The notes under the pieces were generated by a model that was not told where the DNA came from, searched no databases, and worked only from the letters and a program-made list of their open reading frames with translations. From Deltaproteobacteria bacterium (lineage in GTDB: Bacteria; Myxococcota_A; Polyangia; Polyangiales; Houyiibacteriaceae), in contig JAFDAJ010000025.1 of NCBI GenBank assembly GCA_019313915.1, positions 1 through 61,171 on the forward strand: DNA of 61,171 bases, written 5' to 3'. Each line of letters begins with the position of its first letter. The stretch's first letter is position 1. The position numbers were made by a program, and so were the translations under genes. This document shows positions 41,536-45,144 of the stretch, one piece after another.

Positions 41536-42891
41536 CTATGCCCCCGGAACCTTCAGCCGAGGGACGAGCTCCGTGTCGAACGCGGCGTCGTTCAAGTGAC
41601 CGAGGACCCATCCGAGGCTTCGCTTCTCCTCGATCCAGCGCACGAGCACAGTGTGGTCCCACCGCCGCCCCAACATGTTGAACCCTGCGACATGGTCATC
41701 TTGAACCACGACTCGCGTCGTACTGGATACGCTTCCCTTTTCCTCGAAGAACCAGTCTGTCTCGCGCTCGAGCTCCCAGTTCACCAGGCCTACGGTGGTG
41801 TACTCGATATCCATGAGCTTGGCCGAGTTGTACCAAGTGCCCCGTTGGTACCGCGGCATCTCACCCAACAAGCGCCCGCCCGCGACGCGGCCCTGATCGC
41901 GCGCCGTGTACCAAAGCTGCTCGGGCCGCCGGGTCCCGTCGAACCAGCGCACCGAAGCGCAGTCCCCAGCCGCAAACACGTTAGGTGCGCTCGTATGCAG
42001 GCCCTCGTCGACCACGATACCGCCGCGCTCATCGAGCTCAATCGCCGTATCGGCCAGCCACCCTGTATTGGGCGTCACGCCGATCCCAACCACCACGCAA
42101 TCGCTTTCGTAGCGTCCCACATTGGTTCGCACCGCTGACACATTTCCGTCGGCATCGGTTTCGAGCGCTTCGATCTCATGCTCGAGGTGGACTTCGACAC
42201 CGTGCTGCGCCATGCGTTCACTGATCCAGCTCGATTCCCTCCGATCGAGCGCGATCGGCCAGAACCACTCCTCACGGATGAAGAAATGGGGCCGGAGGCC
42301 GGCTGTGACGGCAACCTCTATGGCTTCGATCCCGATGAGACCCCCGCCGATCACCGCGGGCTTCCGCGCCAGCTGACCGCGACGCTCCGCGGCGACCTCC
42401 CGGAAACGATAAGGCGAGTCGCTGGTGCTTGCGTTCGCATGAGCCCGCGGCCTCGGTGGCCCGCCAGCACGGGATGCGCCGCCGTGTATCTCGCGCTCGT
42501 ACCAATCCAGGTCTTGCAGCGTGACGAAGTGGCCGACCCCGCGCGCCTCGCTTCCGGGCCAGGGCCCCTGACGCGGTCTCGAGCCGGACGCGATCAGCAG
42601 TCGGTCGTACGAAACCGGTTCGTGACCTCCGGCGAACGAGACGCGCCGACTCACGATGTCGATACCCGTCGCCCGTGCACGCACCCGCCGAAAGCTCAGC
42701 CTCTGGTACGCGTCCCGCTCGAGAGGCTCGATGTCGCGGTGGCTCATTTGTCCGCTGAAGACCCACATCAGCGCGGTCCGGGAAAAGAAGTGGTCGCTCT
42801 CCTCCGAAATGAGCGTGATCTCCCAGCTCGGCTCCCGCTTCCGCACGGCGAGCGCAGCCTCCATCCCCGCTACAGCCTCCTTGAAGTCCAC
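41536..42891 (-). CDS. FAD-dependent pyridine nucleotide-disulfide oxidoreductase, N-terminally truncated (possible pseudogene)
   Basis: YDRLLIASG, VIGGGLIGIE, GVTPN, TSAPNVFAAGDC; begins at VAGMEAAL without the preceding xIGxG. Confidence 0.75.
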   Translation of the reverse strand: MDFKEAVAGMEAALAVRKREPSWEITLISEESDHFFSRTALMWVFSGQMSHRDIEPLERDAYQRLSFRRVRARATGIDIVSRRVSFAGGHEPVSYDRLLIASGSRPRQGPWPGSEARGVGHFVTLQDLDWYEREIHGGASRAGGPPRPRAHANASTSDSPYRFREVAAERRGQLARKPAVIGGGLIGIEAIEVAVTAGLRPHFFIREEWFWPIALDRRESSWISERMAQHGVEVHLEHEIEALETDADGNVSAVRTNVGRYESDCVVVGIGVTPNTGWLADTAIELDERGGIVVDEGLHTSAPNVFAAGDCASVRWFDGTRRPEQLWYTARDQGRVAGGRLLGEMPRYQRGTWYNSAKLMDIEYTTVGLVNWELERETDWFFEEKGSVSSTTRVVVQDDHVAGFNMLGRRWDHTVLVRWIEEKRSLGWVLGHLNDAAFDTELVPRLKVPGA

Positions 42892-42946
42892 ACCCCATCT
42901 TTGGCAAATATGGCATTACTGGATTTAATCACTTAGATTGAAAGCC

Positions 42947-44243
42947 ATGCACGAGAATGCAACCAATGCCTTCGTGGCTGGGGTGCTGGTGGGGAAGCCC
43001 ATCTTCCGCGCGCCCGGCATCGTCGTACACGGGGGACTGGACCGCGAAGACCGGGAAGTGGCGGTGATCGTCCTCCAGGCAGTGACGACCGACGGGCAGA
43101 AGCTGAACTTCGAAAACATCGCTCGTTACGCTGACGCCTCCGGCATCGAGATCATCAAGGAAGAGCCCCACGTCATTCTCGCCACGCCGGAACCGAAAGG
43201 GATCTTTCGCGACCTGCCGTGGAGCTCGTGGCGCCTCGAGGAGCGCATCCGGCATTTTCACGAGGTGGCGATCATCGTCCAGCGGTTCCACGCGACCGAC
43301 GTCCCGGTAGGCACGCTCTCCCCGAAGTACATCGCGGTCGACGAAGAGCTCAAGCCGTTCTTCCTAGGTCCGCGCATCGCGCCTCGCAGCGGCGCCTACG
43401 TCCCACCGGAAACCGCGAGCGAACGACGCATCGATCTGCGCTCGGACGTCTACTCGCTTGGGAGGCTTCTCTACTTCGTGGTCGCCGGCGAGGAGCCACC
43501 GCGTGAGGCGCGGGACATCCCCATGCTCGAAGAGCTAGGAGGCTACCCGGCCGGCCTCGTACGGATCATTCGCAAAGCGACGTGCCAAAAGCCTGACGAT
43601 CGATACCGGTACGTCGACGAGCTCCTGACGGACCTCGATCGGTACCGGGAACACGCCGATGTCGGCATGTTGCACCCCGAAGTGGACGATCGAAACACGG
43701 GCATCCTGAGCGTTGTTCCCGATGCCCCGAAAGAACCGGAGCCAAAGGCCGCACCCGAAACCGTAGTCCCCACAAAACAACAGGCAAAGGCAACCTTCAC
43801 GGCGAGTCCGTTGAAGCTGCAGTGGCTGTTCCGCGGGATAGGGCTAGCGATAGCGTTCGCCGGCATCGCGTTTCTCGTCAGCGACTATCTCGATGCGCAA
43901 GCAAGCTTGCGGGCGCTAACGCCTCAGGAGTCGGGCGAGCTCTCGAGCTTCGTGAGCGAAGCCTCCGTGTCCGATGGGTATCCCCCTGCGTTGTTCGCCC
44001 AGGTCGACGAGTCCTGGGAGCTCTTGTCCACCGAACGCCGGCAGGAAGAGGCCGAGGCCCTGTTCGAGTCGGCTAGTGCCCGTCTAGGAACGCAGGACGG
44101 ATTCATCCATCGTGGCAGGGCACTCGTGGCCCAGCGGTGGCAAAACGAGGTGACCGTGTTCGGCAGCCTTCAGGGCACTCGTGGCCCAGCGGTGGCAAAA
44201 CGAGGTGACCGTGTTCGGCAGCCTTCACGGAGATACAGAATGA
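42947..44243 (+). CDS. Membrane-anchored Ser/Thr pseudokinase; natural stop bypassed by a 55-bp duplication
   Basis: Kinase C-lobe [24 protein letters not shown]; no HRD or [20 protein letters not shown]; with one repeat copy removed it ends FGSLHGDTE* at TGA 44241-44243. Confidence 0.75.
44116..44225. repeat. Exact 55-bp tandem duplication
   Basis: CAGGGCACTCGTGGCCCAGCGGTGGCAAAACGAGGTGACCGTGTTCGGCAGCCTT at 44116-44170 and 44171-44225. Confidence 0.95.
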
Positions 44244-44650
44244 ACATCAAAGCTCAGGCCTCGAGACAGCGCCAGCGCCGAGATGGCTACACGCTCGTGG
44301 ACATGATGATCGTCATTCTGATCATGGGCATCCTCGGAAGCGTCGGGCTCAATCAGTACAACAAGTACATCGCCCGGGCGAAGCGGCCCGAGACGATCAT
44401 GGCCTTCCGTGCGATCGCCGCCTCTCAGCGAGAGTACCTGCTCACACATGGCAGATATGCCGGCACCTTCGCGGAGCTTGGATTCAACATGGAAAGCGGC
44501 GCGAAGGTCTCGCCGACCGAAATCCAGGGGTACACCTACAACTATCGAATCCTCCAGGACGACGGGCCTCGGTCTTGGTATGTGGTCGCAACCGGGAATA
44601 TCGACGGGGATGGGTTCCCGGACATCATTGCTGCGAGCAATCCCCGATAA
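44240..44650 (+). CDS. Type IV pilin-like protein (136 aa) with non-canonical G|YTLVD prepilin site
   Basis: Basic leader [16 protein letters not shown], then [36 protein letters not shown] overlap. Confidence 0.85.
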
Positions 44651-44676
44651 ACTGAACGGTTGGTAAGGTACCCCAC

Positions 44677-44704
44677 TTGAGGACTGTAAATTTATTCCTA
44701 TACT
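44677..44704 (+). promoter_or_regulatory. Promoter of the secreted GN-rich protein
   Basis: TTGAGG-N16-TATACT in an AT-rich spacer; AAGGGG RBS before ATG 44728. Confidence 0.5.
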
Positions 44705-44727
44705 GAAACTTGAAAGGGGCATCTGAA

Positions 44728-45144
44728 ATGAAAGCAAAACGTTGGACTTTAGGGGTCGTGCTTGCGACGGCTGTGAGCCTTTGGGGGCTCGTAGAGGCCG
44801 ACGCGAGCCCATTTTCTTCGTACATTTTGTCCGATGATCTCGGCAATGTGGTTAACGGAACTGCACCGACGGTGGACGGATCGGCGACTGGCGACACGAA
44901 CGACACAGACTGGGTCGTGAACAATGTCAAGAGCAACAACGGTCACGGGAACAATGAAGACGGCGTGGACTCGAGCAATCCAAGTCAAGGTGGCGGCGGC
45001 CCGAATGGAACCGCCGATGAGTCCTGCCCAGAAGGCGGAGTGTGCGTCGACGACGAGGCCGGTGGCGGCGGTTCTACCAGCGACTCGGGCAACGGCAACG
45101 GCAACGGCAACGGCAACGGCAACGGCAACGGCAAGAAGAAGTAG
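44728..45144 (+). CDS. Secreted Gly/Asn/Asp-rich protein with NNGHGNNEDGVDSSNP motif and (GN)7 tail
   Basis: Sec signal MKAKRWTLGVVLATAVSLWGLVEADA; low complexity; one Cys pair. Confidence 0.8.
   Translation: MKAKRWTLGVVLATAVSLWGLVEADASPFSSYILSDDLGNVVNGTAPTVDGSATGDTNDTDWVVNNVKSNNGHGNNEDGVDSSNPSQGGGGPNGTADESCPEGGVCVDDEAGGGGSTSDSGNGNGNGNGNGNGNGKKK
45088..45129 (+). repeat. Hexanucleotide microsatellite (GGCAAC)7 encoding (GN)7
   Basis: Seven perfect units followed by GGCAAG. Confidence 0.95.

Follow-up and report, generated by a model that had tools for sequence, protein, structure and literature searches.

A membrane pseudokinase gene overlapping an orphan type IV pilin gene in a genus of marine-sediment myxobacteria

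Three neighbouring genes, encoding a membrane pseudokinase, a pilin and a secreted Gly/Asn-rich protein, pose two questions: whether they were acquired together as a cassette, and what a kinase that has lost its catalytic residues could be doing beside a pilin. They lie on the forward strand of the window, the whole stretch of 61,171 nucleotides that was analysed, which comes from an uncultured genus of marine-sediment myxobacteria (Myxococcota, order Polyangiales). An earlier sequence-only reading had taken them for an acquired cassette in which the dead kinase acts as scaffold or sensor for a minor pilin and a secreted partner. What is new here is that the pseudokinase of this genus belongs to a wider Polyangiales family, and that its pairing with a pilin recurs.

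Gene layout and defects of the assembly

The three genes are co-oriented and set apart by AT-richer spacers (GC 0.38 and 0.42; window 0.63), and no pilus-assembly gene was found among the 49 window ORFs scanned against Pfam; on these points the open reading frames and base composition bear out the earlier description. The pseudokinase probably starts at the ATG listed in Table 1, the ORF listing giving TTG 42938. Its native stop (TGA, 44241-44243) can be reached only when one copy of a 55-bp repeat is set aside, and then overlaps the pilin ATG as ATGA. This overlap had been predicted for the window once the duplication is removed, and it is also the layout of the relatives, whose pseudokinases end ...FGSLHGD(x)(x)* and share the ATGA in 36 of 37 loci, with a 1-nt overlap in the other one.

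Directly 5' of the pseudokinase, the columns of the conserved stretch in the AT-rich block are invariant in the alignment of relatives, and the block is a possible promoter or leader; a consensus scan found no sigma-70-like site in it. The third gene has a sigma-70-like promoter, in which the -10 hexamer and most of the -35 block reach 90% conservation or more over 34 sequences, followed by GAAAGGGG at 44712-44719, 8 nt before the ATG. The trio is best read as two expression units, the ATGA-coupled pseudokinase and pilin genes and the third gene under its own conserved promoter. A terminator-like hairpin separates the third gene from a convergent FAD-linked oxidase gene (45199-46815, minus strand).

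Table 1. Coordinates of the features of the locus in the window
Feature	Position	Strand	Remarks
Pyridine-nucleotide-disulphide oxidoreductase (flavoprotein)	41536..42891	-	Left neighbour; Pyr_redox_2 E 1.5e-45
AT-rich intergenic block	42892..42946	+	GC 0.38; conserved CTGGATTTAATCACTTA directly 5' of pseudokinase start
Membrane pseudokinase gene	42947..44243, one 55-bp copy set aside	+	Profile matches, alignments, model
Second 55-bp copy	44171..44225	+	Perfect repeat; shifts frame +1; fuses pseudokinase and pilin
Pilin gene	44240..44650	+	136 aa, orphan type IV pilin
Sigma-70-like promoter of third gene	44677..44704	+	TTGAGG, 16 nt, TATACT
Secreted low-complexity protein gene	44728..45144	+	138 aa
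GC-rich hairpin	45173..45190	.	7 G-C pairs, scored on minus strand; terminator-like

In the window as it stands, the first two genes form one frame of 570 aa (42938-44650), because a perfect 55-bp tandem duplication (44116-44170 and 44171-44225) shifts the reading frame, 55 being 3n+1. The flavoprotein gene on the left is also damaged. It lacks its first approximately nine codons and upstream leader at the junction of 42870 and 42871, and its Pyr_redox_2 match begins at profile position 10, while the flavoprotein of the relatives starts intact (MRIVIIGNG...). All six aligned relatives have the 63-64 bp that are missing here, against which the window shows a 64-column gap.

Contigs of four public runs, X1 to X4, bear on both junctions. 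Those of X1 and X4 bridge the first with a single copy of the 55-mer, and a loose end in X3 agrees; the duplicated form of the window is shown by none of the four. Contigs of X1, X2 and X4 hold 63 extra letters at the second junction. No pseudokinase-pilin fusion was seen among 20 full-length relatives, nor among the best 120 of the 198 protein clusters matched. Moreover, perfect tandem duplications of 20-108 bp number 77 in this assembly; 33 of them are two-copy with a length not divisible by three, and many of these lie within long open frames. Two near-complete relatives have a single such duplication in 400 kb, and it is in frame. The 55-bp duplication is most likely an assembly artefact, and the fusion and the flavoprotein truncation are best explained as assembly errors, that is, as defects of this assembly and not biology.

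The fusion and truncation might instead be real strain-specific mutations. Both stand in an assembled contig, rare variants can drop out of contigs, and the public runs contain related strains that differ at many single letters, so that the exact strain may be unsampled. Against the bridging contigs, the lack of the window's form in every run and the excess of duplications in this assembly, such mutations appear very unlikely. Assembly error remains the preferred explanation, and since both features are peculiar to this assembly, the junctions are uninformative about acquisition. The sequence-only reading had itself named misassembled junctions as a point that would tell against it; both are absent from independent contigs and so are best read in that way. 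The practical warning is that a cassette-like look arose from a fusion and a truncated neighbour, in a metagenome assembly with dozens of comparable duplications that break reading frames.

Inheritance of the trio within the genus

Among 24 relatives of the genus, the pseudokinase is full-length in 20, partial or broken in three and absent from one. The pilin gene is found in 38 of 43 loci, and in 38 of the 38 with enough DNA, the five others ending inside the kinase gene or no more than 100 nt after it. For the third gene the counts are 37 of the 43, and 37 of 37 with enough DNA; it is missing from the same five short loci and from one whose sequence breaks off within the pilin gene. Flavoprotein, kinase, pilin and secreted gene follow one another in this order in 9/9 loci and across 43 further loci. 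The surroundings are those of housekeeping genes (serA-like, purA, ribosomal protein S1, prfB, lysS and BamA). The search for neighbourhood conservation that had been proposed for this locus thus turned out in favour of the trio, which co-occurs, in the same place, in every relative with enough DNA.

On these observations the trio is read as a chromosomal module passed on by vertical descent. A cassette gained by horizontal transfer, having landed in the flavoprotein gene and truncated it, could account for a flavoprotein without its start and GxGxxG beginning, for the AT-rich spacers, for the lower GC of the pilin and third genes (0.58-0.60) and for the confinement of all three proteins to one genus. 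However, the flavoprotein is intact beside the same genes in the relatives, the missing bases exist in independent contigs, the GC of the pseudokinase gene equals the window mean (0.632 and 0.628), and the window contains no mobile-element genes and the trio no flanking repeats. Such an insertion is therefore extremely improbable. The cassette is not supported by a trio that is genus-wide, syntenic and set among housekeeping genes, and the left-edge scar taken as its sign is a deletion specific to this assembly. The reading is contradicted for this genome, and acquisition is possible only at the root of the genus.

Properties of the three proteins

The pseudokinase consists of a kinase-like domain (approximately residues 1-240), a linker, one TM segment (residues 293-316 counted from the ATG; nt ~43823-43894) and an extracytoplasmic alpha/beta domain of about 90 aa (residues 322-411; nt ~43901-44170 plus a 5-aa tail). 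By sequence or fold homology it is a member of the kinase superfamily. Its C-lobe aligns in a profile search against the PDB with PknB residues 183-280 (E 5.4e-8), from the P+1/APE region to helix I, and the top Foldseek matches are PknB kinase domains (E 2e-4, ~266 columns), obtained with a poor model of the query domain (mean pLDDT 44). The PknB_PASTA_kin profile gives E 2.7e-12 with a score far under its cut-off, and Pfam Pkinase (PF00069) gives 16.5 bits against a cut-off of 31.7.

Where an active kinase has its essential residues, this protein has V124-G-T-L-S-P-K-Y131 in the catalytic loop, F142-L-G-P145 at the DFG place (alignment numbering) and VAVIVLQ, without lysine, at the beta3 place, so that other residues stand in for each of beta3 Lys, HRD Asp, catalytic-loop Asn and DFG Asp. 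The motifs were placed by their spacing from the aligned C-lobe and by the numbering and residue roles of PknB. All 47 aligned pseudokinases share G125, T126, P129, L143, G144 and P145, which suggests that the odd catalytic-site motifs are under purifying selection, and the first ~60 residues are almost invariant in the alignments. The replaced motifs, the FLGP, the missing VAIK lysine, the retained C-lobe, the single TM segment and the periplasmic domain had all been recognized earlier, and alignment and modelling agree. The outer domain is modelled well (pLDDT 74-92). Its best structural matches are the CamS C-domain, alpha-lytic-protease-prodomain-like folds and GerMN (Z 5.8-7.5), the top value of 7.5 lying in the range that the tool calls common, and no clear structural relative emerges; GspL, GspM, PilN and PilO are not among the best 50 matches listed.

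The pilin had been called atypical, and 29 sequences confirm it. A basic leader of 16 aa ends at a cleavage-type site between G16 and Y17-T-L-V-D21, in which G16, T18 and D21 never vary and Y17 hardly does, and a hydrophobic stretch occupies residues 15-40 (helix 19-47 in the model). The constancy of G16, T18 and D21 likewise suggests purifying selection. The G-1 and hydrophobic helix of a class III signal peptide are present; the GFxxxE pattern is altered, with Y at +1 and D at +5, which differ from the residues typical of assembling pilins. The small alpha/beta head contains no cysteine in the window sequence. The model (pLDDT 71.6) has the pilin fold: pilins or pseudopilins fill Foldseek ranks 1-16 and 18, led by type IVa pilins, with 5vxx as the best (E 6.5e-4) and M. 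xanthus PilA (8tj2) also matched. The myxobacterial PilA model matches residues 7-90 (E 3e-13). Scores lie under the cut-offs of all curated pilin models tried, in the case of the prepilin models just below them (N_methyl 18.9 bits against 21.2; TIGR02532 15.0 against 16.3), so that, with D at +5, filament assembly is not assured. The T2SS major pseudopilin GspG was rejected as an identity, since TIGR01710 covers only residues 16-79 with a score far below its cut-off (25.8 bits against 88.85, E 8.6e-6) and the window has no gsp genes. One FG-GAP match (PF01839) of 22 residues occurs at the C-terminus (25.4 bits against 22.1). As a single such loop cannot form a propeller, it is taken only as a DxDGD Ca-type loop, which probably binds calcium.

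Genes able to process and assemble pilins are found elsewhere in the genome. They include two Peptidase_A24 genes, eight T2SSE-family ATPase matches, a PilB over its NCBIfam cut-off and two PilT-family genes. PilA-like pilins adjoin an NtrC-type regulator there.

The third protein fits its description as secreted and GN-rich, with a signal-peptide-like N-terminus, likely cut after ADA. Glycine makes up 23% and asparagine 16% of the mature part, which opens with the conserved SPFSSYILSDDLGN. After it come a variable region of acidic/Gly/Ser character, the motif NNGHGNNEDGVDSSNP, a loop with two Cys, VDDE, (GN)7 and, as the tail, KKK. Orthologues (n=33; 94-302 aa where complete) were found only within the genus; scans of Pfam and further profile models matched no family, and no informative neighbour was found. 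The protein probably binds calcium. As its gene has its own promoter, adjacency is what ties it to the pseudokinase-pilin pair.

Recurrence, proposed function and comparison with known systems

The wider pseudokinase family comprises 330 protein clusters at E <= 1e-10 and is present in 95 of 401 Polyangiales genomes. The catalytic motifs are degenerate in 17/17 aligned members, and two distant ones (L059 and L099) pass the Pfam Pkinase cut-off of 31.7 bits with 34.4 and 37.9. On this comparative evidence the family is old and catalytically degenerate throughout. A pilin gene lies directly 3' of the pseudokinase in five of 18 distant loci (G114, G031, G124, G036 and G205), which belong to three other families of the order, with an ATGA-type overlap in three of the five. 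Judged by gene order, at least four families of Polyangiales have members of the pseudokinase family directly 5' of a pilin gene. The 13 distant loci with no pilin after the pseudokinase indicate that pairing is not obligatory for the family; its recurrence elsewhere points to an undescribed pilin partner. The distant paired pilins are canonical, with F[ST]L[IVA]E after the G, and their head domains have no detectable relation to that of the genus pilin, hhalign aligning 48 N-terminal columns only. The third gene is absent from these distant pairs.

The reading preferred here, to which we give about an even chance as a whole, is that of an inherited module in which the pseudokinase is the dedicated non-catalytic membrane partner of the ATGA-coupled pilin. 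The prepilin would be cut after the invariant G16 by the prepilin peptidase of the cell and passed on to type IVa pilus machinery whose genes lie elsewhere in the genome. The pseudokinase would bind or sense the inner-membrane pilin pool through its TM segment and outer domain, and its very conserved cytoplasmic face would be presented to a putative partner. The third protein, an addition specific to this genus, may work together with the pilin outside the cell. The earlier idea that a dead kinase might serve the pilin as scaffold or sensor gains indirect support from the near-constant ATGA and from the pilins that follow in three other families; the third protein is more weakly linked as a partner, its gene being genus-restricted and having its own conserved promoter.

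An unpolymerised pilin-like co-receptor, anchored in the membrane and facing the periplasm, might instead act with the pseudokinase to sense the secreted protein or Ca2+ and signal inward via an active kinase partner. Y+1 and D+5 where pilins that assemble typically have other residues, Ca-binding-type loops of Asp/Asn/Gly in both pilin and third protein, a near-invariant pseudokinase N-terminus as for a protein-docking face, and active Ser/Thr kinases in the genome (one in the window at 23621-25618) are consistent with such a receptor. It appears rather doubtful, as the invariant G-1, acidic +5 and basic leader are hard to explain without peptidase processing, and the distant paired pilins are fully canonical, G-1 being followed by F(S/T)L(I/V)E.

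A bolder form of the pilin-partner reading is put forward tentatively, as possible rather than probable. Polyangiales may possess an undescribed class of membrane Hanks-type pseudokinases, translationally coupled to particular type IV pilins, which as dedicated partners sense or chaperone the pilin in the inner membrane and relay its state to the cytoplasm without phosphotransfer; in this genus the pair would have been remodelled with a new outer domain, a shortened Y+1/D+5 pilin and an added secreted partner. If this is true, such pseudokinases could be a general accessory part of type IV filament systems that has so far escaped recognition. Few bacterial machines have been studied as thoroughly as type IV pili and their relatives, and the assignment of roles to bacterial pseudokinases is just beginning. 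A dead kinase staying coupled to a pilin across families would be a new accessory or signalling partner in pilin biology, and the pairing would provide a specific function, open to testing, for bacterial pseudokinases of the Hanks type. No paper on pseudokinase-pilin pairing was found among titles and abstract beginnings, which at that level agrees with the earlier statement that no system with this layout is described.

Among known systems, GspL and PilM-PilN combine a cytoplasmic domain, a single TM segment and a small outer alpha/beta domain with a genetic link to a pilin or pseudopilin. The pseudokinase resembles them in layout; the cytoplasmic fold is actin-like there and kinase-like here. 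By analogy, it might dock an ATPase and nucleate a short pseudopilus of the pilin, which exports or displays the third protein. The bitopic architecture, the secreted protein encoded next door, the weak GspG-model match and the tight coupling to a pilin with pseudopilin-like features (small size, no cysteine in the window sequence, a DGD loop) would fit this proposal. It is nevertheless quite unlikely: no ATPase, platform protein or secretin gene is nearby and no machine genes adjoin the pseudokinase, the GspG score is far too low, the third gene is missing from the distant pairs, and the outer-domain comparison, although not decisive, placed none of GspL, GspM, PilN and PilO among the best 50 matches listed.

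The pilin shares with type IVa pilins (PilE/PilA, M. xanthus PilA) the class III signal peptide with G-1, the hydrophobic alpha1N and the lollipop alpha/beta head. It differs from the myxobacterial PilA model in its length (136 aa against ~214 model positions), and from type IVa pilins and GspG in its 16-aa basic leader, Y+1 and D+5 and in being encoded away from all assembly genes and coupled to a pseudokinase. GspG is likewise small, without a disulphide and with a probable Ca loop. Signalling from a pilin to an inner-membrane sensor kinase is described for PilA-PilS of P. aeruginosa and PilA-PleC of Caulobacter, with PMC7196804 and, reportedly, Kilmury & Burrows 2016 as precedents for pilins that signal to membrane kinases. 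The analogy is a possible one, as a membrane kinase-family protein would be tied to a pilin whose TM helix lies in the same membrane. PilS and PleC are active histidine kinases that are not translationally coupled and act on major pilins, whereas the putative pair here consists of a Hanks-type pseudokinase and an orphan pilin. The closest solved Hanks-type kinase, PknB of M. tuberculosis, has in common with the pseudokinase the kinase fold, a homologous C-lobe and the receptor-kinase layout of cytoplasmic domain, one TM segment and outer domain. The pseudokinase departs from it in its catalytic replacements, which are themselves conserved, in its short activation segment, in an outer domain that is not PASTA, and in the pairing of its gene with a pilin gene.

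Layout of the locus and its assembly

Three plus-strand coding regions lie between a flavoprotein gene and an FAD-linked oxidase gene (Table). They encode a membrane pseudokinase (gene 1), a pilin (gene 2) and a secreted protein rich in glycine and asparagine (gene 3). As assembled, genes 1 and 2 form a single frame of 570 amino acids, which contains a perfect 55-bp tandem duplication. Because 55 equals 3n+1, the duplication shifts gene 1 into the frame of the pilin. With one copy of the 55-mer set aside, the TGA of gene 1 shares three bases with the pilin gene at its ATG. The ATGA overlap that the sequence-only reading had described after removal of the duplication is thus correct for the window sequence.

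Table. Features of the locus and of other window genes named in the text.
Feature	Position	Strand	Remark
Ser/Thr kinase gene	23621-25618	+	Pkinase E 6.3e-33, C-terminal DUF4388
Ribosomal protein S1 gene	36979-39396	-	
Tandem duplication in S1 gene	39181-39236		24 bp, perfect, in frame
PilZ-domain gene	39538-39957	+	E 2.4e-12
Macro-domain gene	39947-40459	+	
Flavoprotein gene	41536-42891	-	left neighbour; Pyr_redox_2 E 1.5e-45
Fused frame, genes 1 and 2	42938-44650	+	as assembled
Gene 1, pseudokinase	42947-44243	+	one 55-mer set aside
Tandem 55-mer, copy 1	44116-44170		
Tandem 55-mer, copy 2	44171-44225		
Gene 2, pilin	44240-44650	+	
Gene 3, secreted protein	44728-45144	+	
FAD-linked oxidase gene	45199-46815	-	right neighbour

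Neither the fusion nor the short flavoprotein gene was found in the related DNA compared. Compared with six relatives, the window misses 64 columns comprising the flavoprotein start codon, its first nine codons and the leader. Logan contigs of four public runs with near-identical DNA, labelled as sediment, cold seep and vent, were compared over 42600-44500. Relative to the window, the X1, X2 and X4 contigs contain an additional 63 letters between 42870 and 42871. At the duplication, X1 and X4 have contigs that read through with one copy of the 55-mer, X3 has a loose end that is consistent with one copy, and X2 has no coverage of this junction. The window's form at the two junctions was seen in none of the four runs. 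Moreover, the fused length does not occur among the 120 family protein clusters listed out of 198 matched, in a search range (226-720 aa) that covers it.

Similar duplications are scattered over the window's own genome, which contains 77 perfect tandem duplications of 20-108 bp, 33 of them two-copy and not a multiple of three (examples at C181:15305, C13:470, C268:12168, C405:2558 and C402:4764). Many out-of-frame cases lie inside long open frames, which are lengthened when one copy is removed, e.g., from 1001 to 1157 aa or from 757 to 912 aa. In 400 kb of two near-complete relatives, only one such duplication was found, in frame, whereas about seven would be expected at the density of the window's genome. 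The window's ribosomal protein S1 gene also holds a short duplication (Table). A k-mer overlap of 55 left by the assembler was considered as the source and dropped, since the genome has no period-55 peak; the periods range over 20-108, with one case at 55. The fusion and the truncation are very probably assembly artefacts, although contigs could miss a rare real variant. Aside from these two probable defects, the locus noted by the sequence-only reading is real. Gene calls in this assembly warrant caution.

The ATGA overlap of kinase stop and pilin start recurs in 36 of 37 loci, and the remaining locus has a 1-base overlap; L056, in which the kinase match is incomplete, was excluded from this count. 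Such an overlap is a classic arrangement for translational coupling and usually accompanies proteins made in fixed proportion. Gene 3 most likely starts at ATG 44728, preceded by GAAAGGGG, and its end is followed by a GC-rich hairpin. Across 34 sequences, the 78-nt spacer 5' of gene 3 is more conserved than the flanking coding sequence and contains TTGAGG, 16 nt, TATACT, then GAAAGGGG and the ATG. This order of elements suggests that gene 3 has its own promoter, so that the trio would form two expression units. A sigma-54 promoter 5' of the pseudokinase was judged by eye and rejected for the misfit of its -12 element. An Rfam scan of 42000-46000 returned nothing beyond a chance-level miRNA match (E 0.95). 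GC content is 0.632 in the kinase gene, 0.584 in the pilin gene and 0.595 in gene 3, with a window mean of 0.628.

Properties of the three products

Residues 152-237 of the pseudokinase are homologous to the C-lobe of Mycobacterium tuberculosis PknB (residues 183-280, E 5.4e-8). The NCBIfam PknB model matches with E 2.7e-12, far under its own cut-off. For the kinase part, AlphaFold gave a poor model from a shallow alignment (mean pLDDT 44); with this poor query, the structure-plus-sequence alphabet of Foldseek ranks PknB kinase domains first over about 266 columns (E 2e-4), and VIA-align matches residues 10-86 to kinase N-lobes at a Z of about 5. Catalytic motifs were placed by their spacing from the aligned C-lobe and by the residue roles of PknB. 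V-G-T-L-S-P-K-Y stands in the catalytic loop, F-L-G-P at the DFG place and VAVIVLQ, which lacks the lysine, in the beta3 strand. These substitutes are invariant across 47 family members, which argues for a long-standing pseudokinase and not for a decaying gene. A single hydrophobic segment (residues 293-316, counted from ATG 42947) is followed by an alpha/beta domain of about 90 residues modelled at pLDDT 74-92. Its best fold matches, the CamS C-domain, an alpha-lytic-protease-prodomain-like protein and GerMN, are middling and heterogeneous (Z 5.8-7.5), and no fold was named. The first 60 residues are nearly invariant, and this conservation suggests that the pseudokinase may have a conserved cytoplasmic partner. 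The window also encodes an apparently active Ser/Thr kinase (Table), which is a possible active partner for pseudokinases.

The pilin has 136 residues, with a basic 16-residue leader, a hydrophobic helix and a small head. Among 29 sequences, G16, T18 and D21 are invariant and Y17 is nearly so. At the N-terminus it resembles the myxobacterial PilA model (E 3e-13), but it scores under all curated cut-offs. The structural model (pLDDT 71.6) retrieved type IVa pilins first, namely Neisseria gonorrhoeae 5vxx (E 6.5e-4) and also Myxococcus xanthus PilA 8tj2. A stretch of 10 residues at the C-terminus gives a single FG-GAP match, read here as probably a Ca-type loop only.

The gene 3 product begins with a signal-peptide-like sequence, and its mature part consists of 23% Gly and 16% Asn. 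No family was found in Pfam and NCBIfam scans. In Protein Atlas, the best feature score was 0.82, under lead level, and structural matches reached a TM of at most 0.35 with a model of pLDDT 0.36, so that no neighbour was informative. Over 33 orthologues, the signal peptide, the mature N-terminus SPF(S/A)xYxLxDDLxN, VDDE and a Lys-rich tail are conserved, together with one or two copies of NNGHGNNxDGVDSSNPG; a two-Cys loop is usual. The acidic/Gly/Ser stretch that separates these elements is of low complexity and differs widely among orthologues, which measure 94-302 aa where complete. The longest is that of locus L050 (from 6729), extremely rich in Asp, Gly and Ser, where the NNGHGNN motif and Lys tail are replaced by two copies of C-S-W-W-Q-W-W-C at the C-terminus. 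Some single proteins contain the NNGHGNN motif twice. In some genus members, two NNGHGNN..VDDE matches lie 0.6-1.7 kb apart (G084:C33:7995 and 9602; G091:C4:119987 and 120629; G012:C8:264102 and 265845), and these probably reflect a second gene 3 copy.

Conservation within the genus

The window is an entire 61-kb contig of a genome in 448 contigs. Housekeeping genes occur throughout (cytochrome oxidase, alternative complex III, serA-like, purA, ribosomal protein S1, prfB, lysS, BamA). Genes for mobile elements are absent from the window, and so are pilus-assembly genes, as the sequence-only reading had noted for the surroundings of the module. A PilZ-domain gene lies 3 kb upstream of the module and shares its last 11 nt with the start of a macro-domain gene.

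A full-length pseudokinase orthologue was found in 20 of 24 same-genus genomes, with 57-77% identity and open frames of 413-486 aa. Three others have a partial or broken gene: in G019 and G023 it lies at a contig edge, and in G012 it is split into three pieces. None was found in G002, which is 92% complete. The pieces in G012 (20 contigs; C8:261466-262694) are overlapping frames, due to either frameshifts or sequencing errors. Of 55 genomes of the genus, counting that of the window, 44 have the full-length pilin. It was not found in 33 genomes from 17 other genera of the family; 13 of these genomes have generic N-terminal pilin matches only. The gene 3 protein motif was detected in 19 of the 26 genomes searched within the genus; outside it, 1 of 174 gave a match, at a borderline E of 0.008.

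The order kinase, pilin, gene 3 is identical in all nine genus loci compared. The flavoprotein is at the left in eight of them, where it starts with MRIVIIGNGVAGMEAAL. A scan of species-representative genomes, all from uncultured MAGs, added 43 loci, titled mostly Polyangiales, Myxococcales, Sandaracinaceae, Polyangiaceae or delta proteobacterium, several without a taxon and one Coxiellaceae. The pilin is 3' of the kinase in 38 of these; the other five end inside the kinase gene or at most 100 nt past it. Gene 3 is present in 37 (displaced 0.85 and 2.4 kb further on in L053 and L056), the exceptions being the same five short loci and one ending inside the pilin gene. On the left, 38 of the 43 loci have the flavoprotein. 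In four species (L026, L029, L032, L033), another gene takes its place while the FAD oxidase is kept at the right, so at least one rearrangement of the left boundary has taken place in the genus. Since the trio co-occurs in these loci and is syntenic across the genus, the sequence-only reading was wrong in regarding it as an acquired cassette.

Pseudokinases beside pilins in Polyangiales

An exhaustive profile search for the pseudokinase retrieved 330 clusters at E <= 1e-10, of which 39 reach E <= 1e-30. When 16 clusters were aligned with the window protein, the catalytic-loop and DFG places were degenerate in 17 of 17. Two architectures follow the TM region. One has an alpha/beta outer domain as in the window (clusters P0241, P0242, P0244, P0249 and P0251). 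The other has several TM segments, pentapeptide repeats (Pfam Pentapeptide) and a CxxxT..P..W.C end. Two members of the pentapeptide type exceed the Pfam Pkinase cut-off (34.4 and 37.9 vs 31.7 bits); this connects the entire family with protein kinases. Among 401 genomes sampled across the phylum, the full-length window architecture was restricted to the window's genus (17 of 18). Matches to the kinase part came from five more genomes of its order, and the other sampled orders gave none. Within the order, 95 of 401 genomes and 27 of 136 genera have a member of the wider family.

Downstream DNA was examined in 20 distinct loci outside the genus, 18 of which had at least 0.85 kb. In five of the 18, a canonical pilin gene is directly downstream (G|F(S/T)L(I/V/A)E, 183-206 aa), and all three of the pilins scanned were above the N_methyl cut-off. 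Three of these loci (G114, G031, G124) represent one family (3/3 genomes), G036 a second and G205 a third. By printed coordinates, the junctions are of the ATGA type in G114, G036 and G205, with a 23-nt overlap in G031 and a 141-nt gap in G124. The pilin motif was not found in the other 13, where detection by motif only may miss atypical pilins. Pilin genes make up a very small share of a genome, so five adjacent ones in three further families are very unlikely to be there by chance, although the loci, being kin, allow no statistic. In hhalign, only 48 generic N-terminal columns align between the genus pilins and the distant paired ones; relatedness of the heads was not detected, and hence no orthology is claimed for them. 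By eye, both groups end with a beta-strand and then G(D/N)(L/I)DGD. At L099 and L100 (G114, G031), from the small-genome family with a pentapeptide-type pseudokinase and pilin, the gene after the pilin has, by eye, a start reminiscent of a cyclic-nucleotide-binding domain, and the gene on the upstream side resembles, again by eye, a thioredoxin-reductase-type flavoprotein.

The invariant G-1, basic leader and acidic +5 residue argue that the pilin would be cut by prepilin peptidase. Two Peptidase_A24 genes are present in the genome, which elsewhere also encodes a type IVa set with PilB over the NCBIfam cut-off and two PilT-family ATPases, PilA-like pilins adjoining an NtrC-type regulator, and a GspH-like minor-pilin cluster. 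The proposed partnership of pseudokinase and pilin is now better supported than from the window sequence alone. From translational coupling and the recurrence of the pair, we infer that the pseudokinase would act on or with the pilin while both are in the inner membrane. The main rivals are that the pseudokinase would serve as a GspL-like platform, or that the pilin would be a non-polymerising co-receptor.

The sequence-only reading knew of no described system with this layout. In agreement, a full-text literature search, as far as the passages it returned extend, did not turn up any account in which a Hanks-type pseudokinase is paired with a pilin, and the partnership appears undescribed. Myxobacterial EcpK, a pseudokinase that the search returned, is by the title of its report a tyrosine pseudokinase of exopolysaccharide synthesis. 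Pilins acting on membrane kinases are known from Caulobacter, where PilA acts on PleC (abstract of PMC7196804), and from Pseudomonas aeruginosa, where PilA acts on PilS (title of Kilmury & Burrows 2016, in the reference list of PMC6058289). PleC and PilS are both active histidine kinases, in contrast to the pseudokinase of this locus.
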